In this document: positions 19,990 to 52,586 of the stretch, in pieces | Numbering within the stretch: position 1 is the stretch's first letter | Layout: each line of letters opens with the position of its first letter | DNA from: Escherichia phage vB_EcoM_DE16 | Length of the DNA stretch: 64,000 nt | Strand: one strand, 5' to 3' | Sequence record: OP595145.1 | Notes under the pieces: model-generated | Seen by the model: only the letters and a program-made list of their open reading frames with translations | What the model was told of the DNA's origin: nothing | Database searches by the model: none | Program-made: the position numbers and the translations under genes

Positions 19990-20805
19990 TTATTTGTTTA
20001 AGTGGTCTTCGACCATTTTAATGAAACCTTCATTGCTGAAGGCTGTTGCAGCTTTTTCTCGGTAAACAAAAACTCCACGATCTTCATAGAGAAGTGTTTC
20101 TTCGTAATTAACTCCAGGGTTAACTACAACCATTTTTGTACCCATACTAAGCGCAGGGAATAATTCCCAATTAAAATTGATAACTTGGTTTGAACATCCT
20201 ACTACTACAACCAAATCTTGCATGGTCAAAGTATCGAACAAGTGAGCCATATCTGCATACAAAGGTGCAGCCTCACCAAAAAATACAACATTAGGCTTCA
20301 CCCAGTTATAATCATCTATGTTTATACTATTGTAACCAATATCTACCAGTGTTTTGTAATCTCCAGGATGCATACGGTAAACTACTTCAGGAAGATATCC
20401 GTGTACGTGAATAACAGAATCTCTGTCTACACCTGCTCGCTCTAGTAGATCATCAACGTTTGTTGTCAAGTTTACTATTTGGTTAGGATATTCCTTAAAC
20501 CACTTTGCTATTTGAATATGTGCAGCATTAGGTTGTACATCTTTAAGCTCAACACGTCTTTTGTTATAAAATTCGTGTGTTTTGGCATACAAATCCATAC
20601 CGTTCTCGTCTACACCACCGACCACTGGAAGATCTGGAGATGTTCTAACACGATAACCTGCTTGGAAAGCTCCAATATCGCAGACCTCTTCTAAATCATA
20701 TTCTTCCCATAAAGCACGACCACTATCTGTGTCTGTTCTAAATGTTCGAATCCCACTGTCTGCACTTAAACCTGCACCGCTTACAAAAATCACTCGTCTT
20801 GGCAT
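19990..20805 (-). CDS. Sir2-family NAD-dependent deacetylase-like protein
   Basis: GAGLSADSGIRTFR (sirtuin NAD-binding motif) and downstream HVHG histidine; 271 aa. Confidence 0.65.
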   Translation of the reverse strand: MPRRVIFVSGAGLSADSGIRTFRTDTDSGRALWEEYDLEEVCDIGAFQAGYRVRTSPDLPVVGGVDENGMDLYAKTHEFYNKRRVELKDVQPNAAHIQIAKWFKEYPNQIVNLTTNVDDLLERAGVDRDSVIHVHGYLPEVVYRMHPGDYKTLVDIGYNSINIDDYNWVKPNVVFFGEAAPLYADMAHLFDTLTMQDLVVVVGCSNQVINFNWELFPALSMGTKMVVVNPGVNYEETLLYEDRGVFVYREKAATAFSNEGFIKMVEDHLNK

Positions 20806-21333: not shown

Positions 21334-21987
21334 CTATACCAGACTTTGTAGGTATTTGTCAAGGGCTTCTTGATCGCCTTGACAAACATAGCAACGGAAG
21401 TCTTGAGCCGAAGGTTGTTTATTTTCATCCCAGTCCCAATAAACATTACCCTTATAACGTGAACCAGGAAACTCAAAAGAGGCTGTATGTGTAATGTATC
21501 CTGGGCCACCAGTGAAATCACAGAATGAGAATTGGGGGTATGCCGCCTTTACTGCCTCAATAAACCAAGCTTTACGATCTAAAGCTTCATTGATGCTATA
21601 CGCATGTCTCTCCATTTCTTCCCACGTTTTCCAGACACTTCTCTCATCAGGAGAAAAGACAAGCCATTCTGGAAGGTATAGAGTGTCATAGTAATCATCA
21701 TATTCGATCTCGGAGGCGCACGAAGCTGACTCCTCCAGTTTTGAGTAATCAAAAGCAGAATATACCCACCAACCATCTTCCAGTAACGCTTTGATAGGGA
21801 CGAAGCCTTTATCAGCATATTGATCGAATTGTTTGACACGGTGGCTTGTGCAGTCTTCAAACTCACATTCTAAACGATATGCACCTTTTCGACGAGCCTC
21901 AAGACCGTGTGTACTGAAAATAACAACACTTCCTTCACCATCATTACGATCTACTTGATAAGCAACCACTGGTTTTGAATTTGACAT
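21334..21987 (-). CDS. hypothetical protein (217 aa)
   Basis: ORF in co-directional block. Confidence 0.55.
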   Translation of the reverse strand: MSNSKPVVAYQVDRNDGEGSVVIFSTHGLEARRKGAYRLECEFEDCTSHRVKQFDQYADKGFVPIKALLEDGWWVYSAFDYSKLEESASCASEIEYDDYYDTLYLPEWLVFSPDERSVWKTWEEMERHAYSINEALDRKAWFIEAVKAAYPQFSFCDFTGGPGYITHTASFEFPGSRYKGNVYWDWDENKQPSAQDFRCYVCQGDQEALDKYLQSLV

Positions 21988-22670
21988 TATTTCTCCTTAT
22001 CTAGAAGATTGTTAGACAAAAACACTGCACGAGCAAAACCACGTGCGGTTAGTGATCTAAGTTGTTTTGTTTTTGCACTAGCTCCACCTAAGCTTTTCCA
22101 ACCCCAGAAGCAGCCTATATGATCTACTGGTTTCTTCACTGGTTGAACAAAACCATTGCCGTGCCAAATACAAGTTTTCTTTGTATACCCATCACGGGTA
22201 GGCATTTTAGGATGAAAGCTTCCTTCCTCTTCAAACAAATACCCACCATACTCATAAGGATCAAAGTAAAAATCGGGTTTACGCCATAAGGTTGAAAGTT
22301 TACCTACTGGGTTCTCAATCATCCAAGGAACATTATATTTGTTACCCAAAGCTTCCACTACACGAATATTAGCTAAAGCTTCATCCAATTCCTCTGTGCT
22401 GCGTTCGTGTTTGCTACCACTACCTGCTAACATAGTGCAAGGTGGAAATCCAAAAATAATATCGGGTTTAGGTATCCCATGATCTTCAGGGTTGAATGTA
22501 GAATCTATCCAGGCATTCACATAGGTTATGTTTGGGTGCTCCATCCTAACCTCGTATTTACCGTGATCCCCTTCATCAGCGTTTACACAAAAACACTTGT
22601 GACCTGCTTCGGCATAACGTAACACCATGATCCCAGATCCGTCAAACATAGACAAAACTGTTTTACTCAT
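21987..22670 (-). CDS. putative DNA cytosine-C5 methyltransferase-like protein
   Basis: motifs MFDGSG (motif I-like), GFPPCT (motif IV PC), ENPVG (motif VI ENV-like); start set at internal Met. Confidence 0.5.
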   Translation of the reverse strand: MSKTVLSMFDGSGIMVLRYAEAGHKCFCVNADEGDHGKYEVRMEHPNITYVNAWIDSTFNPEDHGIPKPDIIFGFPPCTMLAGSGSKHERSTEELDEALANIRVVEALGNKYNVPWMIENPVGKLSTLWRKPDFYFDPYEYGGYLFEEEGSFHPKMPTRDGYTKKTCIWHGNGFVQPVKKPVDHIGCFWGWKSLGGASAKTKQLRSLTARGFARAVFLSNNLLDKEK

Positions 22671-23076
22671 TACCCCTCCATTCAAGACAAGCCATAACTT
22701 TACGCCAATCACTTTCTGTAAGAAAAATCTCGTTTGCTTTCTTCCACAAATCTAAATCGTGAAGGGTTGGAATACGATATGTTAGTTCACAGAATCTATG
22801 CTCTTCTTCTGTAATATAACCAAAATGCAGAGCCACATCGTGAAACCAACACCAACCATGCATCTCTCGAACAACATGGTCATGTTGAGACATTATTTTA
22901 TGCCGTAAACCTAACCAACAAGGAACAGATACTTTAGTAGTCTTTAATCTGTGATCAACAGTATTAGAGTATTCAATAATAGCTGTCAGTTTCAATCGTG
23001 CTTTTTCTAAATCCTCATGGGTCACTTTGAAATAACTTTCTGAAAGATATCCACACATATTAATAACCTCCTTCAA
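22663..23076 (-). CDS. hypothetical protein (137 aa)
   Basis: ORF; weak R-x6-H pattern only. Confidence 0.5.
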   Translation of the reverse strand: MKEVINMCGYLSESYFKVTHEDLEKARLKLTAIIEYSNTVDHRLKTTKVSVPCWLGLRHKIMSQHDHVVREMHGWCWFHDVALHFGYITEEEHRFCELTYRIPTLHDLDLWKKANEIFLTESDWRKVMACLEWRGNE

Positions 23077-24001
23077 AAGGCTTAACTACATGTTGATTAG
23101 CTTTAAAACGTTCAACATAGTCGTTTTCGCCCATGTTTTCATATAGCTTAGTAACAACATAAAAGTTTTCCCAAGCATATTCCCTAAACCAACCACTAGT
23201 GATGGATGTGCAGACTTTAGATAAAGCCATTATAAAACTTTGCTTAGGGGTTGGACCTCCGATCTCTTCACCGAAAGGAATTTGTGAACGTTCCAAAGCC
23301 AAAACACACGCTTCTTCATAAACACCTAACAGGCGCACATGTTTTGGTTGAGCAAAAAACTTTTCTTTGCTGGTCATAACTTCACTTCCATCTTTCATAT
23401 AAGATTTATATGCTGGAGCATCCATTACCGCGATTGCTTCATGGATAGAATCATGATCATAAACATACGGAACCTCATCACCTTTAAAGAAGTCTTTACT
23501 TTTTACGTTTAAGTTCGGATGAGAGTAAGTGTATGTTTCTTTCTCACGCAACTCATAAATACTCTTAAGATTTTCTGGGATCTTTGCGCCCAGTGACCGC
23601 ATGAAATGAATATCTTTCATAGTTTTAAAGAAGTGAGGACTATCCTTTTTAAAACGATGACTCATTTTAAGAAGGTAGAGCACATCTAAAGGAGCAACAA
23701 CATGTCCAGCGTAAGTTCGACGAACATCATCAGAATCTTCACAATAACTAATCAAAGCTTCTGTGCTATCTCCTTGAGAAGCAATATCGTATTCCAAATG
23801 TGCACCAGCTATCATTTTGACGTGACCTTTGTTCCCTTTACGTTCTACAAGTTCAACAAACTCGTCTTGAGAGAACATTTTTGATAATTCTTCCCACTCT
23901 TGTTCTGTACACAGGTAATCTAAATCTACACAAGGGCGATACAAGTCTTTTCCCATGTCCATAGCATGAATTTGTAATGCACGGCTACCAATTAACACCA
24001 T
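23060..24001 (-). CDS. nucleotidyltransferase-fold protein (313 aa)
   Basis: N-terminal LIGSRA ... VDLDYL resembles minimal NTase GS ... DxD signature. Confidence 0.45.
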   Translation of the reverse strand: MVLIGSRALQIHAMDMGKDLYRPCVDLDYLCTEQEWEELSKMFSQDEFVELVERKGNKGHVKMIAGAHLEYDIASQGDSTEALISYCEDSDDVRRTYAGHVVAPLDVLYLLKMSHRFKKDSPHFFKTMKDIHFMRSLGAKIPENLKSIYELREKETYTYSHPNLNVKSKDFFKGDEVPYVYDHDSIHEAIAVMDAPAYKSYMKDGSEVMTSKEKFFAQPKHVRLLGVYEEACVLALERSQIPFGEEIGGPTPKQSFIMALSKVCTSITSGWFREYAWENFYVVTKLYENMGENDYVERFKANQHVVKPFEGGY

Positions 24002-24061
24002 AATATTTCTCCTCTATTGGTTGATAGGTTAAGTTTATCAAGCTTCCAGATTCCTGTCAAT

Positions 24062-24090
24062 AAAAAACCCGCCGAAGCGGGTTATTATTT
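24062..24090 (-). terminator. Rho-independent terminator (AACCCGC-UUCG-GCGGGUU + U run on minus strand)
   Basis: GC stem, tetraloop, flanking A/T runs. Confidence 0.65.
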
Positions 24091-24091
24091 A

Positions 24092-24364
24092 CTAACACAT
24101 TGAGGAAGAAGAGATCCAAACACCTCTTGTGGTTAAACCATTTTCATCCAACTCTACACCGTAATCTTCACAAATGAAATCAATATAGTGATCTGCGGCT
24201 GGCGTTCCTGTAGGGTAATAAGTTTCTCCGTTACCGTAGTCACCTATCCAAGCTTGTTCCTGAAACTGTTCACAAAGTTCTTCAATTTCCTTACGAAACT
24301 TTCTTTGTGCTTGTTCCATCTCTTTAACTTTCTTTTTTATCAGCAGTTCGCCTTCAGACTCCAC
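24092..24364 (-). CDS. small acidic protein ending VWISSSSMC (C-terminal motif family member)
   Basis: 90 aa ORF; C-terminal W-x-SSS-x-C shared with two neighbours. Confidence 0.55.
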   Translation of the reverse strand: MESEGELLIKKKVKEMEQAQRKFRKEIEELCEQFQEQAWIGDYGNGETYYPTGTPAADHYIDFICEDYGVELDENGLTTRGVWISSSSMC

Positions 24365-24373
24365 AATCTCTCC

Positions 24374-24592
24374 TTAACAGCTACTACTGTGCCAAACGCC
24401 TTGAGAATTAACGACGAAACCATCATCACCTTCACCATAACAAGAAGAGGATTGCCAATCTTCAAAACAGATTGCGTCATCTTCTAAACTAAGACCAAAA
24501 CCAGCATCTTCAGCTTCTTTTGTAAGTTCGTCCACTAAAGCCATAATAGCTTGGGCTTTTTCAGTTAATTCTTCAACATTACGATAACTCAT
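24374..24592 (-). CDS. small acidic protein ending VWHSSSC (family member)
   Basis: start set at internal Met overlapping upstream stop. Confidence 0.5.
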   Translation of the reverse strand: MSYRNVEELTEKAQAIMALVDELTKEAEDAGFGLSLEDDAICFEDWQSSSCYGEGDDGFVVNSQGVWHSSSC

Positions 24593-24867
24593 TAGTATTT
24601 CTCCTCTGGTTGGAAAACTGAACGACAAGCCCACATACTAGCTTCTTTTAAATGTTTAATAGCACAACGGATTTGGTCAATACGTTCGTATGCAATATCT
24701 AATTCTTTTTCTGTGCCGTCAAAAGACCCATGATATGCTTCACAATACTCTTCCTCTAAGGCTTTGAAGATTAAACCTAAACGCTCTTCTGCATCTTTAA
24801 TAGCGTTAACCTTGCCAATCTTATCGTCAGTATGCGCCTTATAACCTTTGATATCTTCGATTCCCAT
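24592..24867 (-). CDS. hypothetical protein (91 aa)
   Basis: ATG at 24867 preceded by AGGAGG on minus strand. Confidence 0.55.
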   Translation of the reverse strand: MGIEDIKGYKAHTDDKIGKVNAIKDAEERLGLIFKALEEEYCEAYHGSFDGTEKELDIAYERIDQIRCAIKHLKEASMWACRSVFQPEEKY

Positions 24868-24878
24868 TTTACCTCCTA

Positions 24879-25076
24879 TTAACAACTTAAAGAAGATGGA
24901 TGCCAATTTGTTCCAGTATTCTCATTTTCGTCTTCTGGATCATAATAACCACCCATCCCATATTCAGGGGAGAAACGGAAACCTTTACCAGTCTCATCTG
25001 CTAACTGCTCTGCTTCCGCTAAAGCCTCATAAGCTGCTTTTACGGCTTCTTCTACTGTTTTAAACTTGGTCGTCAT
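24879..25076 (-). CDS. small acidic protein ending NWHPSSLSC (family member)
   Basis: 65 aa ORF, third copy of C-terminal motif. Confidence 0.5.
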   Translation of the reverse strand: MTTKFKTVEEAVKAAYEALAEAEQLADETGKGFRFSPEYGMGGYYDPEDENENTGTNWHPSSLSC

Positions 25077-25350
25077 AAAATTTCTCCTCTCCTAAAGACA
25101 TGTTGACATGAAATGCACGATATGTAAATTCGTTGTCCGTTGTGTTTGAATAAAACTCAAATTGAACAACACCATCTTGAGAAGACAGATACATGCCAAT
25201 TTGAACTGTTCCTTCTGGTACCAGGTAAGCATACTCTGGACGTAGTGTTACATTGTAAAAATAAAGTTCCCCAACACCCATTTCATCCCAAGCTTCCCAA
25301 GCGGTAACGAAATTACTTTCAAAACTTGTTACTGATCCGAACTCTGCCAT
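25060..25350 (-). CDS. hypothetical protein (96 aa)
   Basis: ORF in co-directional block. Confidence 0.5.
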   Translation of the reverse strand: MAEFGSVTSFESNFVTAWEAWDEMGVGELYFYNVTLRPEYAYLVPEGTVQIGMYLSSQDGVVQFEFYSNTTDNEFTYRAFHVNMSLGEEKFYDDQV

Positions 25351-25841
25351 AAAACCTCCTCAATCTTGTAGTTTGACTCCATCTCCAACACATTTCCACG
25401 AACGTCTCTCCGAAGAAAGGCATAAGCTTTATTAGGTATTGTAGACTCATATTTAACCATATCTGGCACAGCAAAAGATACTACTACTCCTGCTGGGCTT
25501 CTGTCAAGAGCCTTATTAATATTTCTAAGGATATCGTTAGCCAAGATTTCTGCCAATTCTCCAAGAACAGTTTCGGTTATATCTTTATATCCCATTAAGT
25601 ATTTGTTGATATCTTTCATCTCTGTATTGTTCAGAGTATAGTCCAAAGGATAGAAATTCAAAGCGGAGTCACTTTTATGTGTCCACATGAAATGCACCCG
25701 ATCCGAGCAGAATCGTAACCCTCTGTGAAGAATATCTTCTACAACAGGGAGAATTTCTTTTGTCACATCATTAACCATGTTGTAATCTAAGATTTCTGCC
25801 AAGTTTGTTCTTTGTTCACCACGTTTACGTTTAGGAATCAC
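25329..25841 (-). CDS. hypothetical protein (170 aa)
   Basis: ORF in co-directional block. Confidence 0.55.
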   Translation of the reverse strand: MIPKRKRGEQRTNLAEILDYNMVNDVTKEILPVVEDILHRGLRFCSDRVHFMWTHKSDSALNFYPLDYTLNNTEMKDINKYLMGYKDITETVLGELAEILANDILRNINKALDRSPAGVVVSFAVPDMVKYESTIPNKAYAFLRRDVRGNVLEMESNYKIEEVLWQSSDQ

Positions 25842-26412
25842 TTGTTATTGCCCTCATTACCAAAGGTCGTAGAAAATCGTAAATCTCTTGTTTTGTTTTC
25901 CCACGAATGTTTAAACAAGGAACATTATTGGCTTTAGCTATCTTCCAAGCTGTAGCTGTTCCACCTTTTGCATCTCCATGTTTATCAGTATTAGCACAAG
26001 CCAACAAGAAACATGATGGAGCAGGATTCTCCAAATCTCTACCTAACACTTGATGCACATTACGTTGGTGCAATTTTCTAGCACCCTGCTTAAGCTTTTC
26101 ATAGGCTGGGTGAACATCTTTGATCCATTGCACAGAGATAGCATAGTTCATTGTGTCTGGTTTTGCAAGAACAATAACATCCCCTGGAATCTGATTACCT
26201 TTGAAATTTTCCCAAGGAACATAAATCTCCTTGTTAGTAGGATTTTCAGACTCTTGGACACCTGTTTCAAAAGCAGAATCACTACCTTCTGCCTTCCCAG
26301 ACCTTAATTTAAACCCAAGGTTTGAAAGCCATTTCCCTATGCCTACCATCAAAGCCCACTCTTCTTCGGATATGTCTCTACTTCCAACTCCCGTATAGAA
26401 CAGTTCTGCCAT
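25831..26412 (-). CDS. Rossmann-like DprA/SLOG-superfamily-like protein
   Basis: GVGSR ... SGKAEGSDSAF pattern reminiscent of DprA/Smf SGxAxGxD core; ATG 26412 after GAGGTGA. Confidence 0.4.
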   Translation of the reverse strand: MAELFYTGVGSRDISEEEWALMVGIGKWLSNLGFKLRSGKAEGSDSAFETGVQESENPTNKEIYVPWENFKGNQIPGDVIVLAKPDTMNYAISVQWIKDVHPAYEKLKQGARKLHQRNVHQVLGRDLENPAPSCFLLACANTDKHGDAKGGTATAWKIAKANNVPCLNIRGKTKQEIYDFLRPLVMRAITSDS

Positions 26413-26419
26413 AATCACC

Positions 26420-26728
26420 TCAACAAGTAATTTCAAAAGGTGTATAGGGTTCCGTATTTCTCATGATCCAAGGACTGCTAGGATTGCTCGGATCATAAGG
26501 ACCAAAAGGTTTTATGGTCGGTTGTGTTTCTTTCTTCTGAATCTCTTCAAAAATACGACGAAGTTCAGAATATTCTTGATCCACCATAAGATTCGGTGCA
26601 TCTGATTCTACAGCTTGCAGGTTATCTTCCTTAAGAACAATCTCACGAACAAGATTAACATCTTCTGTTTCTAAGATAACTTCTTTACGGATATTACCTA
26701 CACTTTGAATAATTGTAATCTTATACAT
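26420..26728 (-). CDS. hypothetical protein (102 aa)
   Basis: ORF in co-directional block. Confidence 0.5.
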   Translation of the reverse strand: MYKITIIQSVGNIRKEVILETEDVNLVREIVLKEDNLQAVESDAPNLMVDQEYSELRRIFEEIQKKETQPTIKPFGPYDPSNPSSPWIMRNTEPYTPFEITC

Positions 26729-27471
26729 TAATCCTCCTCAAGAGTTGAATAAAATTGAAGACCACCGTCCATATCGAAATAAGCAAATGTTAAGTTATTA
26801 TTGAACACAGATCCAGTATCCATATAAACACGATTCGCATTGATAATAGGTGTTTTTACATAAGAGTGTCCATGAAACACATAATCCACACCCATCACAA
26901 CAGGAAGTTTCATTCCCTCTTTAGCACAGTCTACCATATCTCTGTCCCACATAAGTGCTTCAGCAAAACGGTTTTCCTGTGTTTTTGTCATCTTCGAAAT
27001 GTATTCTGGAATATCTGTTACAGGGAGATATTCCAAAGAAGATGGATACCCACCATGAATAAACGCAAGTTTCATGCCTCTGTAGTTAACAATGAGAACA
27101 ACAGGTAAATCTTCTGTCATCATTGCTAAGGCTGTAGCTCCTTCTTCACCACATTCTTCAAAGACCGTATATCCTCCATTTTGATACCAACACTCGTAGT
27201 AGCTACGATCTCCTTCCAGCATACCTTTAATCATCATGTCTTCATGATTGCCACGAATAGCGTAGCGATTGTGTTTACGAGTAAATTCTAAAACACAACG
27301 AAAGTTTTGCTTTCCACGGTCAGTAAGATCTCCTAGAGATACAACCACATCTGTATCTCGGATACCTAACTTTGCCTTTCCTTTTTCATACAAATTATAA
27401 CAACCGTGTAGATCTCCAATTATAAAAAGATCTTGATCGCTTTTAACAGTAATTTCTCTGTGTATGATCAC
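26728..27471 (-). CDS. Ser/Thr protein phosphatase (calcineurin-like metallophosphoesterase)
   Basis: GDLHG, GDLTDRG and GNHE metal-binding motifs in order. Confidence 0.8.
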   Translation of the reverse strand: MIIHREITVKSDQDLFIIGDLHGCYNLYEKGKAKLGIRDTDVVVSLGDLTDRGKQNFRCVLEFTRKHNRYAIRGNHEDMMIKGMLEGDRSYYECWYQNGGYTVFEECGEEGATALAMMTEDLPVVLIVNYRGMKLAFIHGGYPSSLEYLPVTDIPEYISKMTKTQENRFAEALMWDRDMVDCAKEGMKLPVVMGVDYVFHGHSYVKTPIINANRVYMDTGSVFNNNLTFAYFDMDGGLQFYSTLEED

Positions 27472-27797
27472 TTATCCTCCTCAAAATCTAAGAAAATAAA
27501 AATATTCACCTTTCCTTCAATCTCTTGTTCTAAAACAAGATCGGCAAATTCTGCATAAGCTTTCTCTTCAACTTTTTCAATATGTTCTGCGGCATCTTTA
27601 AAAGGCGTATCCCCATCCACCTTTACTAATAAGAAAAGAGATCGCATTTCGACGTTTTTACTGTTACGAGGAAGGAAATCTACAGCTTCAACAATTCTCC
27701 AACCCAAATAGCCAGGGGTTTTATGAATCTCCCCTAAATACTTTTCTAAGATTTTACGACCCTCGTCGATAAGGGCTTGTTCTGTAGTAATTTCCAT
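27468..27797 (-). CDS. hypothetical protein (109 aa)
   Basis: ORF, ATGA overlap with downstream gene. Confidence 0.5.
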   Translation of the reverse strand: MEITTEQALIDEGRKILEKYLGEIHKTPGYLGWRIVEAVDFLPRNSKNVEMRSLFLLVKVDGDTPFKDAAEHIEKVEEKAYAEFADLVLEQEIEGKVNIFIFLDFEEDK

Positions 27798-27807
27798 TCC
27801 TTCCTCC

Positions 27808-28380
27808 TCAAATTATTAACGAAACCGCATGACTAAATCTTGGTTCAGATATAACCTCTGCTACAGTCACATATGTATCGTGCAGCCAAAAAGATTCTAC
27901 TCTACAAACACAAATACCGTTGATAATGAAATCTACACAGGATTTATTATTTTCGCACACCTGTTGACTATAAACAACCCCTAAAGAGTCATAAAGTGAT
28001 CTCACTGTTGCTACCATTTCATCTGTTTCGTCTTCGTGTGAAACAAAGAAGACGAATACAGACAAGTTATTAGCGAAAGTATTGCTATTCTCTACTTCAA
28101 CCGACTTACAAGGTAAAAAGGAGTAATATTTACCGCTAGGTATCAATTTCGCCTCAACCTGGTTAAGTATGCTTTGAGATGGTTTTGTTACATAAAAAAG
28201 ATTTTCTGTTGGGTTTTCAACATTACTCCTTACTATGCAACGAGTGGGGTTCGAAGGATCAAAAACATGATCGAAATCGACACACACAGGTAAGTTAACA
28301 ACTTTAAACTTTTTGCTAAGAATGCTTACTGCTGTAAAAATCAAACCAGCATTTATTTTGCCAGTGAAAGTTGAACGCAT
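27808..28380 (-). CDS. hypothetical protein (190 aa)
   Basis: ATG 28380 preceded by GAGGAG. Confidence 0.55.
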   Translation of the reverse strand: MRSTFTGKINAGLIFTAVSILSKKFKVVNLPVCVDFDHVFDPSNPTRCIVRSNVENPTENLFYVTKPSQSILNQVEAKLIPSGKYYSFLPCKSVEVENSNTFANNLSVFVFFVSHEDETDEMVATVRSLYDSLGVVYSQQVCENNKSCVDFIINGICVCRVESFWLHDTYVTVAEVISEPRFSHAVSLII

Positions 28381-28394
28381 AACTACTCCTCGGA

Positions 28395-28589
28395 TCATTC
28401 TACCAAAGAGAATTCCGCCTCTTCCAGGTAGATTACAGACCTTGTTGCATGATATTTAACGCTCCAGAAATTACCTTCGCGCCGTAAAAGTATCTCATTC
28501 ACATCAAGATTGCTTAGAAAAACCATATAACTTAAAGCTTGTTGACGCGTTGAGAATTGTTTCTCTAAAAGTTCTTCTCCGCTCTGCAT
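28395..28589 (-). CDS. hypothetical protein (64 aa)
   Basis: ORF in co-directional block. Confidence 0.45.
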   Translation of the reverse strand: MQSGEELLEKQFSTRQQALSYMVFLSNLDVNEILLRREGNFWSVKYHATRSVIYLEEAEFSLVE

Positions 28590-28634
28590 AATCCCTCCTT
28601 AAAATACTCCCTCCGAAAAGGGAGTATAAGTATA

Positions 28635-28838
28635 TCACGTAGTTGTTATGTTGTCTTCTTGGATATTAGAATCCACTTCTGCAAACATATCTTCTGCACT
28701 GTAATTATTTCCAGTCCAGCGTGATAAAAGGATAGCACCAATCTCTTTTGCATGAGATTCGGACTCCGCATAAACGTTAGTCCCAGTGTCACCTTTTTTC
28801 TTTTCATGTGCATAAATGCAGTAATAATTGTAAGCCAT
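28635..28838 (-). CDS. hypothetical protein (67 aa)
   Basis: ORF in co-directional block. Confidence 0.45.
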   Translation of the reverse strand: MAYNYYCIYAHEKKKGDTGTNVYAESESHAKEIGAILLSRWTGNNYSAEDMFAEVDSNIQEDNITTT

Positions 28839-29074
28839 TAATCTTCCCAGTCATTGCCCTCGGTAGAGTGAACTAAAGCTCGCACGATACCACCGTAATC
28901 TACTGCCTGATTTGCAGCATGTTCGGCATAAACTTCAATGGCTTTTTTGAAGAAAAGAGCAGTAGCTGCTTCAATATTATCCATTTCGCCATCTACGTCA
29001 GTAGAAAGTGAAAGGTTGAGGCTTTCATCTACTTCATCAAAATCAATAGCCACTGTCATAATTAGTTTACCCAT
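28838..29074 (-). CDS. hypothetical protein (78 aa)
   Basis: ORF in co-directional block. Confidence 0.45.
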   Translation of the reverse strand: MGKLIMTVAIDFDEVDESLNLSLSTDVDGEMDNIEAATALFFKKAIEVYAEHAANQAVDYGGIVRALVHSTEGNDWED

Positions 29075-29086
29075 AGTTCACACTCC

Positions 29087-29596
29087 TTAAACAAAATAAA
29101 ATGGTTGAGAGAGGCCCAAACGATTCTTTGGGTCGTATACATACCAAGCGTATGCTGTCTTATCTGTTCCACCTGCAACAAACGAAGGCCGTTCTGAAAG
29201 GACTATAAGGTTTGTTGGTGGATTCTTTTGATGGAACTCTCGTCGTTTCTTTGACTCCAAGAAGCCCAACCGAAGAAGATAAATACAAACATCCGCCTCT
29301 TTTAAGCTCTTTTCCAAGAACTCCATTGCTAACTTGAATGGAGGATTTGTGATTATAATGTCGGGACGATTTTCCCATTCATGACTAAAATAATCTTTAC
29401 CTTCTTCAAGTTCACAATATTCTGAACCTTCAGGAAAATGGCGATAAATCGCTTCAGCTTCACCTCTACAAGGTTCTGCAAAAACCCAACCTTCTTCCTT
29501 TAGATTTTTGAAATCTATAACACTAAACAAACTATTGATTGCTTTTTGCGGTGTCGGATAATAATCGCTCGTTGGGCGATCATAATCTAATGCCAT
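29087..29596 (-). CDS. putative N6-adenine methyltransferase (NPPF motif)
   Basis: IIITNPPF matches motif IV (D/N-P-P-F/Y) of amino-methyltransferases; 169 aa. Confidence 0.5.
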   Translation of the reverse strand: MALDYDRPTSDYYPTPQKAINSLFSVIDFKNLKEEGWVFAEPCRGEAEAIYRHFPEGSEYCELEEGKDYFSHEWENRPDIIITNPPFKLAMEFLEKSLKEADVCIYLLRLGFLESKKRREFHQKNPPTNLIVLSERPSFVAGGTDKTAYAWYVYDPKNRLGLSQPFYFV

Positions 29597-32746: not shown

Positions 32747-33007
32747 TTACTCCGCAATTTGAGCCATGAGATCACGCAGTTCGGTAAAACCGCCTACGTA
32801 TGTTACCTCCCCGTTCACTTCAGACAGAATTTGTGGAAATGTGCGTGGAGGAACTCCGGTAAGATCAACAACTGTTTTAGTCATTGATTCTAAATCATAG
32901 TCTTGGTCAAGACTTAAATATTCAAACTGTTTATTGCGCATAGTCAATAGTTGTTTTGACATTTCACAAAATTGACAGTTAGGTTTACCAAAAATTACAA
33001 ATTCCAT
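32747..33007 (-). CDS. glutaredoxin-like protein (CxxC redoxin)
   Basis: 86 aa, FGKPNCQFC active-site motif. Confidence 0.7.
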   Translation of the reverse strand: MEFVIFGKPNCQFCEMSKQLLTMRNKQFEYLSLDQDYDLESMTKTVVDLTGVPPRTFPQILSEVNGEVTYVGGFTELRDLMAQIAE

Positions 33008-33849
33008 TACCTCTCCTTATTAAGTAATACTGCTAAAGACTGTTCAATACCTTTATTTAAATCTGATTTTGTAAGATAGTGACTGGTTACTAGTTGTGAC
33101 TTCACCGGACGTGCTGCTGGAGCATTATAGGTTGAAGCTGATACCGCCGATATCTTAACAGGTTCTGGCATCTGTGTCAAGATCTTTTCCGCAAACTCCG
33201 CCCAAGAAATAAGATGGCTTCCTGCAAAATGGTAAGTCTTAACAGACCTTGACCAACCTGTTTTTAATACTTCAAAAATAGCTTCTGCTAAATCTGGAGC
33301 ATATGTTGGACAAGATAACTGATCAGCAACAATAATAAAATCACGTTGTCCATCATTATAGCGAGACAACATGGTTTTTAGAAAGTTATTTCCAAATTCG
33401 CTATATACCGAGGCTGTTCGAATAATATATGCATTTGGGTTAACTCCTCGCACCATTTTTTCACCAAGTTCTTTCGTATACCCATAATTGTTTATTGGGT
33501 TAGGTGTAGTATCTTCAAAAATAGGATGAGAATAATTAAAAATATAGTCTGTGGAAATATGCACAAAATCAATTTTAAGTTTGCTGCACACTGCCGCAAT
33601 ATTTGCAGGGCCATAAGCATTAACAGCCAAAGCAGTAGCAAAATCTTGTTCGGCTTTATCTACAGCCGTATAAGCGGCGCAATTAATAACACCATCTACA
33701 TAATCTTCAACAATAGCGTTTCGCACAGCTTCAAAATTTGTAATATCTACACGTTCTTTAGGATAAATTAAAGATACATTTGCAGGAGCAACTTTACGTA
33801 AAGCTTGTCCCAGTTGTCCATTACCACCCAATACCAGATATGTTAGCAT
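33007..33849 (-). CDS. rmlD: dTDP-4-dehydrorhamnose reductase
   Basis: N-terminal LVLGGNGQLG Rossmann motif, length 280 aa, position in rmlBACD cluster. Confidence 0.75.
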   Translation of the reverse strand: MLTYLVLGGNGQLGQALRKVAPANVSLIYPKERVDITNFEAVRNAIVEDYVDGVINCAAYTAVDKAEQDFATALAVNAYGPANIAAVCSKLKIDFVHISTDYIFNYSHPIFEDTTPNPINNYGYTKELGEKMVRGVNPNAYIIRTASVYSEFGNNFLKTMLSRYNDGQRDFIIVADQLSCPTYAPDLAEAIFEVLKTGWSRSVKTYHFAGSHLISWAEFAEKILTQMPEPVKISAVSASTYNAPAARPVKSQLVTSHYLTKSDLNKGIEQSLAVLLNKER

Positions 33850-34409
33850 ACACCCTCGCTACGTAACTGTTGAAAAGATTTAGCCATTGCATCTTTTGTT
33901 GATAGGATAGGTTTAAAACCTTCATCAAAAATCATATCGAAGCCCCAATCGATCCCTATATCAGGATCATCCCAACGTAAACTTTGTTCACTAGAAGGGT
34001 CGTATGGAGTTGTGCATTTGTATTCAAAGATAGCATCCATACTCAAAACTATAAAACCATGTGCCAAACCAGGTGGAAGCCAAAACTGCGTATGGTGTCG
34101 TGCACGAAGAACAACACCGTCCCAAGCACCGTAAGTAGGACTATCTTTACGTAAGTCTACAGCGAAATCCAATACTTCACCACTTACACAACGAACAAGC
34201 TTACCTTGCGGATTATTTGTTTGAAAGTGCATTCCTCGCAAAACACCGAAGTTTGATTTAGACATGTTATCTTGAACGAAAGTTTGTCTACCAATAATAT
34301 CTTCGTATTTTTGTTCATTATATGTTTCTAAAAAGAAACCACGGTCATCTTTATAAACGTCTGGTTTGATAATTACCGCACCTTCAATTTTTGTTTTTTC
34401 TACTTTCAT
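33843..34409 (-). CDS. rmlC: dTDP-4-dehydrorhamnose 3,5-epimerase
   Basis: cupin-type RmlC region [12 protein letters not shown]; start at ATG 34409 overlapping rmlA stop (ATGA). Confidence 0.75.
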
Positions 34410-35284
34410 TTTCCCTCCGCTAATTTGAGTAGGTATTGCCCGTACTCTGTTTTCTTCAGTGAGTTTCCATGATAGACCAAAGTCTCTAAAGAAATCCACC
34501 CTTTTTTGAAAGCAATTTCTTCCAGGCACGCAATCTTCAATCCTTGACAGTTCTCAATAGTCTGCACGAATTGACCAGCTTCCATCAGACTGGCGTGTGT
34601 TCCTGTATCAAGCCAAGTAAATCCTCGTCCGAGAACTTCTACTTGTAACTTCCTGTCTTCGAGGTAGCTGCGATTGATATCGGTGATCTCCAGTTCTCCA
34701 CGCGCGGAAGGGGTTACTTCTAATGCACGTTGAATAACAGAGTTATCATAGAAATACAAACCTGTGACAGCATAATCTGATTTAGGATTTTCAGGTTTCT
34801 CTTCAATAGAAATAACTTGACGATTACTCCCAAATTCAACCACACCGAATCGTTCAGGATCTTTCACCAAACACCCGAAGATACAAGCTCCGCCCCAAAC
34901 ATCTACCATCTCACTAGCGTTAATCAGTAGTTTACCAAAGCTTTGTCCGAAGAATAGGTTGTCACCTAAAATAAGAGCAACAGAGTCTTCTCCGATAAAA
35001 TCTTTACCGATGATGAAAGCGTCCGCAAGACCTCGTGGCTCGGATTGGATTGCGTAAGTGAGTTTTATCCCAAACATAGACCCATCTCCAAGAAGATGCT
35101 CAAAGTCTTCCTGATCGCCTGGTGTGGTGATGATTAAGATATCCTTAATGTCAGCCAACATCAATACCGATAAAGGGTAGTAGATCATGGGTTTGTCATA
35201 CACAGGGAGCAATTGCTTGCTCACACTGCGTGTTACCGGATGAAGGCGGGTTCCACTTCCTCCCGCCAAAATAATACCTTTCAT
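34406..35284 (-). CDS. rmlA: glucose-1-phosphate thymidylyltransferase
   Basis: [11 protein letters not shown] ... [17 protein letters not shown] signature. Confidence 0.85.
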
Positions 35285-35292
35285 AACCCTCC

Positions 35293-36285
35293 TTAAATCT
35301 TCTCACTCCACCATTGAGGGTTGTTTAAGTACCATTCAATCGTTGAGTAGAGATCTTGTTCAAATGTAGAGTTTGCACTCCAACCCAGTTCAGACTCTAT
35401 TTTAGAAGGATTGATTTCATAACGCAAGTCATGTCCTTTACGATCTTCAACAAAAGTTATCAAGTTGGAAGAAGGGTAGGTTCCTGCTTCTGGATGTACA
35501 GCATCCATGTAGTCACAAACCATATAGATGATCTCCATATTGGTTTTGGGATTACGTGTTCCAACATTATACGTTTGACCTGGTTCTCCACCTGTTGCCA
35601 CTTGAAGAATAGCTCGCGCATGATCCTCAACAAAAAGCCAGTCTCGCACCTGATCGCCTTTACCATACACCGGAATCTCTTTATTCGTCAAGATACTTGT
35701 GATGATTTTTGGGATCAGCTTTTCTGGATGTTGATAAGGTCCAAAGTTATTGGAGCAGTTGGTTATCACAACAGGTAAACCGTAGGTACGGTACCAAGCT
35801 TTCACAAGATGGTCAGATGCTGCCTTAGACGCACTGTACGGGCTTGAAGGAGCATAAGCTGTCTCTTCGGTAAAGGGAACGCCAGAGTCTGCCATATCGC
35901 CGTACACTTCGTCTGTGGAGACGTGTACGAACATCTTCAGTTTATTTTTTGGGAGGAGCCTTGCAGCTTCCAATAAATTGTATGTGCCAATAATATTGGA
36001 GTCGATGAAAACTCGTGGATTCTTGATAGAATTATCCACATGACTCTCTGCCGCTAAGTGAATGATGAAATCGGGATTGCACTCTACTACTAAACTTTTG
36101 ACCTGGGTTTCGTTTGCCAAATCTGTTATGCTTAGTTTAACGTGAGTGATATCGCCTACATTCTCAATATCTGCTGCATAGCCCATCTTATCAACGACAA
36201 AAACTTCGTTATTGGGATCTTGACAAAGAGAGCGCACCACGGCACTCCCAATAAAACCAAGACCACCTGTTACCAGATAGCGCAT
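35293..36285 (-). CDS. rmlB: dTDP-glucose 4,6-dehydratase
   Basis: [10 protein letters not shown] Rossmann motif and YSASK catalytic Y-x3-K. Confidence 0.85.
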
Positions 36286-41299: not shown

Positions 41300-42298
41300 T
41301 CACCATTTAGTATGATTTGTTAAAAGTTGACGATGTTGAATCCAACCTTTGAAATTGCCAGACCAAAACTTACCATTACGATCTACATGGGTAATACCTG
41401 GTTCCCAAGAGTTAAAATCCCAAGGAGCATTGATAAACAAATCTTCAAAACAGTTCTCTCCGTATTGTTCGCATGTTTCTTGCATTGGGGTGGCTTGATG
41501 TTCAAACGGAGAAGCATGAACCTTGCGCCCAGTTAGCAAACGACCATAAATATCTAAAGCTTTATCTTTAGTTGCATTCAAACGACGATAGCTAACCTGT
41601 GCACAACACGAAGCTGAAATAGCTTTAGCTTCTTCCAAAGTAAGCACAACAACTTCTCCAGATTCATCTTGAACATAGTATCCACCAAAAACAAAATGAT
41701 CGTCACCTTCTGTGCCAATATTATCATAGAAATGGTCTACATAAGGTGTGTGCCATTGCCCTGGTTTAAGCACTTCTGGTGTAGATTCTTCATACTCTTT
41801 GTGCATCTCTTTAGCCAAAGCTTCGATAGTAGGATCGGCTTCTTTGTCATCACGTAGCCACCAGAAATTTTCATATTCTGTTGCTGTCAGAACTGTTTTA
41901 ATTCGTTGGAAAGGTTCCAGAAGACGGTTTGCAACTTGTTTGTGGTACCCTGCCAAAGAGAATTCTTCTGCAAAACGTGCTGCACTAAGCGCGGCAAGAT
42001 CCCACCACTCTTGAGCAGTATAACCTGCATCAATAAGAGCGTCATGATCAACACCTTTATCCTGCATACCAGGTTGGTTAGCCCCAAAACGATAAGGACG
42101 AGCAGGCTGATTTCGCACCATTTCGATCAGTGTTTTAACAGGTATAGCACGGCTAGAAGCAGCGTTACGACTGAATAGGCGGTGAGTCATCAGTTCTGAA
42201 TGAATAATACGTGGATATTCAAGTTCGAAAGTTACAATCTCTTTTCCGTCTTCAGTGATGGAATGCGCAATAATACTAGCCGAAATCTGTTTTGTCAT
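41300..42298 (-). CDS. thyX: flavin-dependent thymidylate synthase ThyX-like
   Basis: THRLFSRNAASSRA fits the ThyX RHR-x7-S signature region; 332 aa (longer than typical). Confidence 0.65.
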   Translation of the reverse strand: MTKQISASIIAHSITEDGKEIVTFELEYPRIIHSELMTHRLFSRNAASSRAIPVKTLIEMVRNQPARPYRFGANQPGMQDKGVDHDALIDAGYTAQEWWDLAALSAARFAEEFSLAGYHKQVANRLLEPFQRIKTVLTATEYENFWWLRDDKEADPTIEALAKEMHKEYEESTPEVLKPGQWHTPYVDHFYDNIGTEGDDHFVFGGYYVQDESGEVVVLTLEEAKAISASCCAQVSYRRLNATKDKALDIYGRLLTGRKVHASPFEHQATPMQETCEQYGENCFEDLFINAPWDFNSWEPGITHVDRNGKFWSGNFKGWIQHRQLLTNHTKW

Positions 42299-51100: not shown

Positions 51101-52033
51101 TTATCCTCCAAAGAAGTTTTCGATTTTTTCACGTCGCTCTTGCTGATTTAAAGCAGCCCATTGAGTCTTCGTAAAATTATTTCGAATCCATTCTAACAAA
51201 GCGTAATATTCTTCGTCAACAATTTGTTTGGCATTTTTCGGATTATCCCAAATCAGATCCCACTTTTTATCTCCACCGCGCATAAGAAACTTCTTAGTAA
51301 GATAGTGTGGTGATTTAATTTTTAAAAGTAAGTTGAACGGATAGTTTGTTTCACGAACTACAAACCCTTCGTGTTTACAATGTTTAGACATTTCAACAAC
51401 ATCTGAAAACTTAACCATTGGATGAACTTCAGGACGCTTAAATTTGGTGACAGAAGCAATTCCATCAAGAGCACCTTCAGGTAACATAAAACTTGTCCCA
51501 TCAGGTTTTTGAATTCTGGCACCAATTAAGTATGCACCTGGTTCTTCTTCGACAATATGCGGATCAGAAGGATCACAGATTTCAAAAAGGAAAGTTGCTT
51601 TTGCGCTCTCTGTCCATTTGATGAAATGTTCTATGTCATCACACTCTGAAACAATATGATTCTTTGCAATACTTGCAAAATCTGATTCAAGGCTTCCTGT
51701 TGTCGATACAATAAGTTGACCTTTATATACACCTACAGAGGCCATAAAACCATTTACTTTACGAACCACATCTACAAGTTCATCCGCTGGTAGATCTGTG
51801 CCATTCTCAAAACGATTAAAAATCTTAGTGAAAGGCCAAATAACAACATTGTCATCACCATCAACAACGATTCCGCGACATTCTAGAAGACGAGAATCAA
51901 TGTTCCATAGGTTATCCCAGAAAACTTTGTTCTTATACTTAAGAACAGATAGACCAGAATACTCTCCTTCTTTATATGTTTTCTTATGAACTAAACCTTT
52001 TTCAACCAAATCGTCGCAATTAAATTTAGTCAC
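51101..52033 (-). CDS. RNA ligase-like nucleotidyltransferase
   Basis: motif I KVNGF, motif III FLFEIC, motif IV EGFVVR, motif V LLKIKS; flanked by kinase and phosphoesterase. Confidence 0.5.
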   Translation of the reverse strand: MTKFNCDDLVEKGLVHKKTYKEGEYSGLSVLKYKNKVFWDNLWNIDSRLLECRGIVVDGDDNVVIWPFTKIFNRFENGTDLPADELVDVVRKVNGFMASVGVYKGQLIVSTTGSLESDFASIAKNHIVSECDDIEHFIKWTESAKATFLFEICDPSDPHIVEEEPGAYLIGARIQKPDGTSFMLPEGALDGIASVTKFKRPEVHPMVKFSDVVEMSKHCKHEGFVVRETNYPFNLLLKIKSPHYLTKKFLMRGGDKKWDLIWDNPKNAKQIVDEEYYALLEWIRNNFTKTQWAALNQQERREKIENFFGG

Positions 52034-52034
52034 A

Positions 52035-52586
52035 TTACTCTCCTTTGATTATTTTGTGATGGTCTACAGTTACGATATCTCGTTTACTCATCATAGAAAT
52101 TATCTCATCAAAATGCAAGATTTTTCCGTGTGCATCCCAACCCACATCTAACATTTTACCATAAGCTTCATCAGGGAAAGATCCGTGGGAATGCCCGTGT
52201 AGCATGATTGATCCACGACCTTGTTTATTCCAGGAGGCAATAGGGTAATGGCTTAAGACGAAGAACAGCTTCTGGTATTTCACTTCGTCATAATACACCA
52301 CTTCGCCATACTCTGCAAGCACTTCTCGGTGCTTGCTGTAATCATGGTTCCCAACAAGATAAGTGATATCCCCTTGCAGACGGGAAGCAATCTTACGGGT
52401 ATCTTCTTCAGTCCCGAAACAGAAGTCGCCCAAATGCCACATCTTAACACCAGGAGTAGTAGCGCATTTATTCCATGCTTCGATCAGTGCTTCTGTCATG
52501 TGGTCCATATCTTCCCACGGTCGATATTCAGGAGCAAACTCTCGTATACGTTTGTGCATAAAATGCAAATCACTTGTAATAAACAT
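52035..52586 (-). CDS. calcineurin-like metallophosphoesterase
   Basis: SDLHF, GDFCFG, GNHD, HGHSH motifs. Confidence 0.65.
   Translation of the reverse strand: MFITSDLHFMHKRIREFAPEYRPWEDMDHMTEALIEAWNKCATTPGVKMWHLGDFCFGTEEDTRKIASRLQGDITYLVGNHDYSKHREVLAEYGEVVYYDEVKYQKLFFVLSHYPIASWNKQGRGSIMLHGHSHGSFPDEAYGKMLDVGWDAHGKILHFDEIISMMSKRDIVTVDHHKIIKGE

Follow-up and report, generated by a model that had tools for sequence, protein, structure and literature searches.

Two genes in a 64,000-nucleotide stretch of Escherichia phage vB_EcoM_DE16 (sequence record OP595145.1; the whole stretch is referred to as the window, and positions are those of the window), gene 1 at 21987-22670 and gene 2 at 29087-29596, probably encode two unlinked, orphan S-adenosylmethionine (AdoMet) methyltransferases, the first acting on C5 of cytosine and the second probably on N6 of adenine in DNA, which would methylate the DNA of the phage itself in a narrow fashion. 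The window belongs to a Phapecoctavirus, i.e. a phAPEC8-like myovirus of the subfamily Stephanstirmvirinae, and more than 60 deposited genomes match it at approximately 99% identity. A first-pass annotation had assigned the two products to different methyltransferase classes from short motifs and had proposed that, together with ThyX and a deoxythymidine diphosphate (dTDP)-sugar pathway, they modify the phage DNA so that it evades restriction. The assignment of gene 1 as a C5-cytosine methyltransferase is supported by its fold, by remote homology, by synteny and by an active orthologue with 50% identity, while gene 2 is only probable as a DNA enzyme, since rRNA as well as DNA methyltransferases are found among its best structural matches. 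The proposal of restriction evasion is not supported by the comparison with related phages, and most likely neither gene serves as a general escape from restriction or shares a pathway with ThyX or the dTDP-rhamnose genes.

The two genes and the parts of them that are discussed here are as follows.

21987..22670, minus strand: gene 1, predicted orphan short 'Dcm-like' DNA C5-cytosine methyltransferase (PHROG 757 family), 227 aa
22673..22679, minus strand: Shine-Dalgarno sequence of gene 1, GGAGGGG, read directly from the sequence
22632..22646, minus strand: gene 1 motif I, F9-D-G-S-G13, predicted AdoMet-binding loop, from translation and from homologue and canonical alignment
22434..22448, minus strand: gene 1 motif IV, F75-P-P-C78-T79 (within GFPPCT), with the predicted catalytic cysteine, from translation; C78 is invariant
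22302..22316, minus strand: gene 1 motif VI, E119-N-P-V-G123, invariant in the family
22176..22181, minus strand: gene 1 K164-K165, at the motif VIII (QxRxR) position of canonical enzymes, from family conservation
22023..22061, minus strand: gene 1 motif IX-like helix, L204-RSLTARGFARAV-216, from hhalign and family conservation
29087..29596, minus strand: gene 2, predicted orphan minimal amino-methyltransferase with gamma motif order (PHROG 799 family), 169 aa
29604..29609, minus strand: Shine-Dalgarno sequence of gene 2, GAGGAG, read directly from the sequence
29462..29476, minus strand: gene 2 motif I, E41-P-C-R-G45, from translation and homologue conservation
29336..29350, minus strand: gene 2 motif IV, T83-N-P-P-F87 (within IIITNPPF), predicted catalytic motif, from translation and homologue conservation

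The ATG start of gene 1 is backed by its Shine-Dalgarno sequence and by homologues that begin at the same methionine, and a longer GTG-initiated open reading frame (ORF) extending to 22712 was rejected on the latter ground. The FDGSG, GFPPCT and ENPVG sequences named in the first-pass annotation are all present by translation and are no chance strings: D10-G-S-G13, F75, P76, C78, T79 and E119-N-P-V-G123 are invariant among the 33 homologues in the family alignment, with the residue that precedes the catalytic cysteine, P77 in gene 1, varying among P, D, S and Q. K164 and T166 are also invariant, and K165 is found in at least 90% of these homologues. Motif I of gene 1 aligns with motif I of M.HaeIII, of the canonical methylase gp043 of phage phi92 and of a profile built from 30 canonical C5-methyltransferases, and E119-N-P-V-G123 aligns with the ENV of gp043.

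Because searches of Pfam, NCBIfam and the PDB sequences gave nothing significant, both genes were assigned from structure prediction, PHROGs, synteny and the literature. Family assignment with profile models was mixed for both proteins, with PHROG families 757 and 799 both labelled 'DNA methyltransferase', Pfam scores below threshold and no NCBIfam match. For gene 1, the match to phrog_757 (E 1.8e-84) covers residues 1-225, and the predicted structure has a fold like those of DNA C5-cytosine methyltransferases, with DNMT3B as the top match; the best hit among PDB sequences was M.HaeIII (E 0.08), over motifs I-IV. PF00145 is reached by seven of the 33 homologues when each is searched singly (best E 3e-6), and it is the sole Pfam family matched by more than one of them. 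When the family was compared with the 30-sequence canonical profile by hhalign, motifs I-IV alone were matched (E 4e-4, probability 35%), and in a comparison with Escherichia coli Dcm alone only motif IX was matched, the helix of gene 1 being paired at low probability with Dcm residues 398-417, RPRRLTPRECARLMGF. The mapping of motif VIII and motif X residues was made by reading the alignment together with the secondary structure of the model, without superposition.

The most direct evidence for the function of gene 1 comes from a study of retron Ec86 (bioRxiv 10.1101/2023.08.16.553469, published as Cell Rep 2024;43:114857), in which four of four escape mutants of the Drexlerviridae phage K42 carried changes in a 711-bp 'Dcm-like' gene whose expression was toxic only in the presence of the retron. 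Liquid chromatography-mass spectrometry detected C5-methylcytosine on the multicopy single-stranded DNA (msDNA) of the retron with the wild-type K42 enzyme and none with the C82A/E128A/K175A/K176A derivative, mutation of the CCTGG motif in the msDNA led to loss of defence, K175 and K176 were named as substrate-binding residues, and the enzyme was modelled on DNMT3A (bioRxiv 10.1101/2023.08.16.553469). The K42 genome is 95.4% identical to that of the BASEL phage KarlJaspers (Bas06) (bioRxiv 10.1101/2023.08.16.553469). In KarlJaspers, bas06_0055 is exactly 711 bp long, and the alignment of its product with that of gene 1 runs the full length at 50% identity (E 1e-71). All four of the residues mutated in the K42 enzyme are conserved, since C82, E128, K175 and K176 align with C78, E119, K164 and K165 of gene 1. 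The two enzymes are alike in length (236 aa in K42/KarlJaspers and 227 aa in gene 1), in motif layout and in being solitary genes of an early or replication region, although KarlJaspers is a Drexlerviridae siphovirus and the phage carrying gene 1 is a Stephanstirmvirinae myovirus. Since fold, remote homology, synteny and the experiment on the orthologue converge, gene 1 belongs, by homology, to a family for which DNA C5-methyltransferase activity has been demonstrated, and its designation as an active DNA C5-methyltransferase is well supported, whereas CCWGG as its site is a guess.

This family is large and widely distributed. Altogether 870 homologues of gene 1 were found, of which the best 120 span 210-267 aa, and the family is present in 1,487 phage records that include Drexlerviridae, Klebsiella siphoviruses, Dhillonvirus and Vequintavirus, with 45-65% identity across unrelated families, as well as in replication or nin-type regions of lambdoid prophages. 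A protein (P0005) considered as a phi92-like orthologue was rejected as such, as it belongs to 150-kb phages of Klebsiella and Citrobacter. As a separate observation, CCWGG is 2.2-fold over-represented at positions 28000-51474 of KarlJaspers (68 sites vs 30.5 expected, z 6.3), and GAATTC and GATATC are almost absent from the same region.

The position that gene 1 occupies was compared across window positions 21334-24001 and the corresponding loci of related phages (L007, 13728-15865; L015, 10302-11148). In phi92, the type Justusliebigvirus, it holds gp043, a canonical 329-aa methylase of PF00145 (E 3e-44) that aligns with gene 1 across motifs I, IV and VI at 25% identity and is flanked by orthologues of the 217-aa and 137-aa neighbours of gene 1. 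In JohannJBalmer (Bas62, Justusliebigvirus) a deletion has removed the position, the 137-aa ORF and half of the 217-aa neighbour, and no C5-methyltransferase was found in the 50 kb of this phage that was fetched. Thus, the slot exists in three states in Stephanstirmvirinae, i.e. with a short Dcm-like gene, with a canonical gene or empty, as is typical of an accessory gene. A DUF7275/DUF7277 gene at 23060-24001 lacks an equivalent in those regions of phi92 and Bas62 that were examined.

Gene 1 shares 8 nt with the 137-aa ORF upstream of it (22663-23076, minus strand), and at its other end the stop codon is overlapped by the start of the following gene. The product of the 137-aa ORF is rich in His, Cys and Trp and belongs to PHROG 16551, with no Pfam match; its phi92 orthologue, gp044 (25% identity), lies immediately upstream of the canonical C5-methylase. 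As an obligate partner of gene 1 this ORF was rejected, because it was not found in Bas62 or beside the Dcm-like genes of Drexlerviridae and a Serratia prophage. A 144-aa ORF overlapping gene 2 was likewise rejected as an obligate partner of that gene, being conserved only within Stephanstirmvirinae, and no partner gene conserved across phage families was found for either methyltransferase.

Gene 2 also begins at an ATG preceded by a Shine-Dalgarno sequence, at the same methionine as its homologues, and overlaps its upstream neighbour by 17 nt. The IIITNPPF amino-methyltransferase motif reported by the first-pass annotation is confirmed by translation, and T83-N-P-P86 is invariant in 38 homologues, as are E41-P-C43 and R136-P137; G45 is present in at least 90% of them, position 87 is F or Y, and E62 at the motif II position and D68-Y69 at the motif III position are invariant or conserved in at least 90%. 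Because motifs I-IV are conserved in the gamma order, gene 2 looks catalytically competent. Its product is the sole carrier of a [DNS]PP[YFWH] motif among ORFs of at least 100 aa in the window, and no further methyltransferase-like ORF or paralogue was found in the 64 kb besides genes 1 and 2. An exhaustive profile search gave 13,593 relatives at E<=0.001, a number that counts cluster representatives and is a lower bound; all but two of the best 150 are 114-260 aa long, and those two longer relatives contain no informative extra domain. Gene 2 consists of the catalytic core only, in 169 aa, with neither a DNA target-recognition domain nor a specificity subunit conserved nearby across families. 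Some members of its family (P0158, P0171, P0190, P0225) have, after the RP(S/C)F strand and before the GTD motif, an insertion of approximately 30 residues (alignment columns ~170-205) that contains two Cys pairs (C-x-G-...-C-G ... C-x-C-G-G) and might form a zinc-ribbon-like, nucleic-acid-binding add-on.

The presence of Asn in an (N/D)PP(F/Y) motif favours N6-adenine over N4-cytosine as the acceptor, and DNA N6-adenine is the probable substrate of gene 2. The structure model is confident and has a class I methyltransferase fold closest to N6-adenine enzymes, its top matches being (N/D)PP(Y/F) cores of both rRNA and DNA methyltransferases. PHROGs assigned gene 2 to phrog_799, 'DNA methyltransferase' (E 2.8e-59), over positions 206-373 only of the 458-position profile. 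Sub-threshold Pfam matches over the 38 family members went to EcoRI_methylase in 32, to Dam in 17, to Eco57I in 11 and to N6_Mtase in 6, and the family profile gave a weak match to the true Dam of KarlJaspers (PF05869) over NPP(F/Y) and the following helix. Gene 2 lies among DNA-metabolism genes in the window, and a relative in an unrelated phage contig is found near RuvB-like, DnaB-like and DNA polymerase A genes. Relative to the gamma-class N6-adenine DNA methyltransferases (M.TaqI, MmeI, M.BseCI, HsdM and M.EcoRI; Eco57I, N6_Mtase and EcoRI_methylase families) and to the phage T1-type Dam (PF05869), gene 2 is reduced to the core and falls below every Pfam threshold. A search of BFVD structures returned automated labels only, and literature searches found no published experimental work on this family.

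Extrapolating from the canonical family, gene 1 would be a C5-cytosine DNA methyltransferase that has been reduced to its catalytic domain, in which Cys78 of motif IV would attack C6 of a flipped-out cytosine, Glu119 of motif VI would protonate N3, and the methyl group would be transferred from AdoMet held by the F-D-G-S-G loop. By analogy with what was proposed for the characterised orthologue, its site may be CCWGG-like. Gene 2, as an amino-methyltransferase core with motifs I-IV, would most likely methylate N6 of adenine in DNA. The role of both is most likely a narrow, site-specific self-methylation of phage DNA, which would protect it from particular restriction systems only, and gene 1 may carry a cost, as a Dcm of this kind, that of K42, is known to trigger retron Ec86/Eco1.

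A number of observations weigh against this assignment. Gene 1 scores 11.6 bits for PF00145, with a cut-off of 22, and has no NCBIfam match, while its family profile found no match among PDB sequence profiles. Compared with the textbook C5-METHYLTRANSFERASES (PF00145: M.HhaI, M.HaeIII, E. coli Dcm and phi92 gp043; DNMT3), gene 1 is approximately 100 residues shorter and has Thr after the catalytic Cys where these have Gln. It also lacks QxRxR, having Y-T-K-K-T-C-I-W at the location of the canonical invariant Q148, R150 and R152, and it lacks a full target-recognition domain, with approximately 38 residues (K165-R205) in place of about 128 (R152-R281). Furthermore, no equivalent of motif X, with its canonical invariant G312-N313, was found, the protein ending 11 residues past its motif IX-like L-R-S-L-T-x-R-G-F-A-R-A-V (canonical motif IX, R-x-L-T-x-R-E-x-A-R-L). 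The lysines of gene 1 may substitute for QxRxR, K175 and K176 being among the residues that were mutated in K42 Dcm. Of the enzymes matched, those of the DNMT3 group have the smallest recognition domains, and the appearance of DNMT3B as the top match to the gene 1 model fits its short recognition segment. Formation of 5-methylcytosine has been demonstrated for the K42 orthologue only, and gene 1 is credited with it by homology. CCWGG was assumed for the K42 enzyme from E. coli Dcm, with the msDNA motif mutation as its only support, and the recognition stub of gene 1 (residues ~172-200) is the segment most divergent from the KarlJaspers/K42 enzyme; because this stub between the lysine pair and motif IX is largely different, the target site of gene 1 may differ as well. 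In the 38-homologue alignment, the clade of gene 2 has Ala in place of the second motif I glycine, and the best Pfam match, EcoRI_methylase at the NPPF motif, scores 14.7 bits with a cut-off of 26.4, all Pfam matches being sub-threshold; NCBIfam gave no match and PDB sequences, whether searched with the single sequence or the family profile, nothing significant. Finally, the sparing of CCWGG and GATC sites described below gives no specific support to phage-encoded protection.

The alternative that gene 1 is catalytically dead or modifies a substrate other than DNA, e.g. tRNA, as Dnmt2 does, is suggested by its lack of a recognition domain, QxRxR and motif X. We consider it exceedingly unlikely, as the 236-aa orthologue of the same architecture methylates DNA in vivo (bioRxiv 10.1101/2023.08.16.553469), all of the named catalytic residues are kept in gene 1, with Cys78, Glu119 and the glycine loop invariant in the family, and many phages that carry the family (e.g. 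Drexlerviridae) have no annotated tRNA genes in the regions seen. An activity of gene 2 on RNA (rRNA or tRNA N6-adenine, as for METTL5, PH1948, Erm and KsgA) or on protein glutamine (as for PrmC and Mtq2), perhaps for tuning host translation or phage tRNAs, would accord with the rRNA enzymes among its structural matches and is unlikely but credible. DNA enzymes score essentially alike in structure (MmeI 13.1, M.TaqI 12.9, BseCI, HsdM and CamA), however, and the sub-threshold Pfam matches to DNA adenine methylase models, the weak match to a true phage Dam and the DNA-metabolism neighbours here and in the unrelated contig all favour DNA. No significant sequence relationship of gene 2 to METTL5/PH1948 or to the Erm/KsgA rRNA adenine methyltransferases was found, and those enzymes need partners or RNA-binding extras of a kind that were not seen for gene 2. 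The sensitivity of related phages to restriction-modification (RM), which might be taken to favour RNA or protein, is equally expected of a site-specific DNA methylase with a different site. For the gene 2 family as a whole (at least 13,593 cluster representatives), we think it improbable that its members methylate RNA or protein during infection or obtain DNA specificity through an unrecognised partner; if this were true, phages would be reshaping host or phage translation with a minimal enzyme that resembles METTL5.

The joint proposal that the methyltransferases, ThyX and the dTDP-rhamnose genes form one DNA modification or hypermodification programme that evades restriction broadly has in its favour that all of the named genes are present, as the first-pass annotation stated, with a ThyX-like gene (PF02511) at 41300-42298 and a complete RmlA-D set at 33007-36285, and that a study of wastewater phages speculated that rhamnose might glycosylate hydroxymethylated bases. 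Nevertheless, these genes are not clustered, with 3.4-12 kb of unrelated genes lying between them, neither a hydroxymethylase nor a DNA glycosyltransferase was seen beside them, and ThyX serves in ordinary dTMP synthesis. In the BASEL study, Vequintavirinae and phi92-like relatives were 'exceptionally susceptible' to RM systems 'despite a putative dTDP glycosylation machinery', and for the Drexlerviridae, which carry the gene 1 family, there was 'no simple pattern' relating methyltransferase genes to RM sensitivity (PMC8594841); later studies class Stephanstirmvirinae with restriction-sensitive phages. Bas62 has an orthologue of gene 2 with 85% identity together with all four Rml genes in the same order, and EmilHeitz (Bas49, Vequintavirus) has one with 48% identity in the same PhoH-protease-methyltransferase order. 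Because these phages carry the orthologues and yet are RM-susceptible, the gene 2 family evidently gives no broad protection and does not act as a DNA adenine methylase without site specificity. Literature searches found no direct measurements of methylomes or restriction for Phapecoctavirus, Vequintavirus or rV5.

The composition of the window is also what one would expect of DNA that can be cut. Twenty-five of the 64 six-base palindromes have no site in it, compared with a mean of 4.3 under a null model that preserves tetranucleotides, the absent sequences including GGATCC, CTGCAG, CAGCTG, CCATGG, GCATGC, GAGCTC and TGGCCA. GTAC, GGCC, CCGG and GGWCC occur at 0.35-0.38 of expectation, and CCSGG is missing altogether. 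Such extreme site avoidance is a signature of DNA exposed to restriction enzymes and, with the susceptibility of the relatives and the scattering of the genes, leaves a common hypermodification programme very improbable. CCWGG (0.84 of expectation), GATC (0.96), GCGC, GATATC and AAGCTT are not avoided. The sparing of CCWGG and GATC was rejected as a sign of phage-encoded methylation, because phi92 and Bas62 have the same pattern of avoidance and spare both sites equally, and Bas62 has no C5-methyltransferase in the region fetched; it more likely reflects a Dcm+ Dam+ host background.

A mainly regulatory or otherwise counter-defensive purpose of methylation, e.g. in timing replication, transcription or packaging, in self-marking or in interference with host Dcm or Dam processes, has in its favour that CCWGG and GATC are methylated by the E. 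coli K-12 host in any case, together with the dispensability of the C5-methyltransferase slot (empty in Bas62 and filled by a different enzyme in phi92) and the striking conservation of the short family across the unrelated phage families of its 1,487 records. It appears doubtful to us, in that no regulatory motif or methylation-sensitive element was identified in the window, orphan phage methyltransferases are generally read as anti-restriction in the literature, and variability of an accessory slot is a usual mark of defence and counter-defence genes. We favour narrow, site-specific self-methylation by two unlinked enzymes.

As the genes are identical or nearly so in more than 60 Phapecoctavirus genomes and many are already labelled, their discovery value is small. 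The 9.1-kb stretch around both is 99.4% identical to Escherichia phage vB_EcoM-Ro121c4YLVW, with dozens more Phapecoctavirus alike; 62 deposited records cover at least 80% of it, and 64 phage records contain both genes with an identity of no less than 99%. Their labels include 'hypothetical protein', 'Dcm', 'DNA methylase', 'putative site-specific DNA methylase', 'DNA N-6-adenine methyltransferase' and 'DNA methyltransferase'. Both genes are thus public and mostly annotated, and the gene 1 family has been characterised; what matters is how well founded the labels are. The invisibility of the gene 1 family to Pfam and NCBIfam leads annotation pipelines to disagree ('hypothetical' vs 'Dcm'), and the link to K42 and KarlJaspers firms the label. 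This link also predicts that phAPEC8-like phages that are candidates for therapy may be sensed by strains with retron Ec86/Eco1, e.g. those of the BL21 type. What interest is left concerns the way in which methyltransferases as unusually minimal as these (227 and 169 aa) recognise their targets, and the substrate on which the large gene 2 family acts.

Both genes sit within a long run of tightly packed leftward genes of the early or metabolic type. The sign of the GC skew flips at approximately 20 kb and 56 kb of the window, matching the switches of coding strand from a rightward block of small ORFs to the leftward metabolic block and from there to another rightward block. A serine recombinase or resolvase gene (PF00239; 12493-13170, plus strand) lies in the rightward block of this lytic myovirus. 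In the leftward direction, a T4-type RNA ligase and a metallophosphoesterase adjoin at 51101-52586 (minus strand), and Bas62 has a polynucleotide kinase gene beside the orthologous pair, which suggests tRNA repair. A 196-aa ORF at 27808-28398 (minus strand) carries the label 'histidyl tRNA synthetase', both from PHROG 4806 and in several records; the label looks unreliable, given a length far too short for a synthetase and the lack of a significant Pfam match. Lastly, a Sir2-family gene (PF02146, E 1.9e-22; 19990-20805, minus strand) encodes a protein 96% identical to its phi92 and Bas62 versions, and is thus far more conserved than its neighbours (25-66%).

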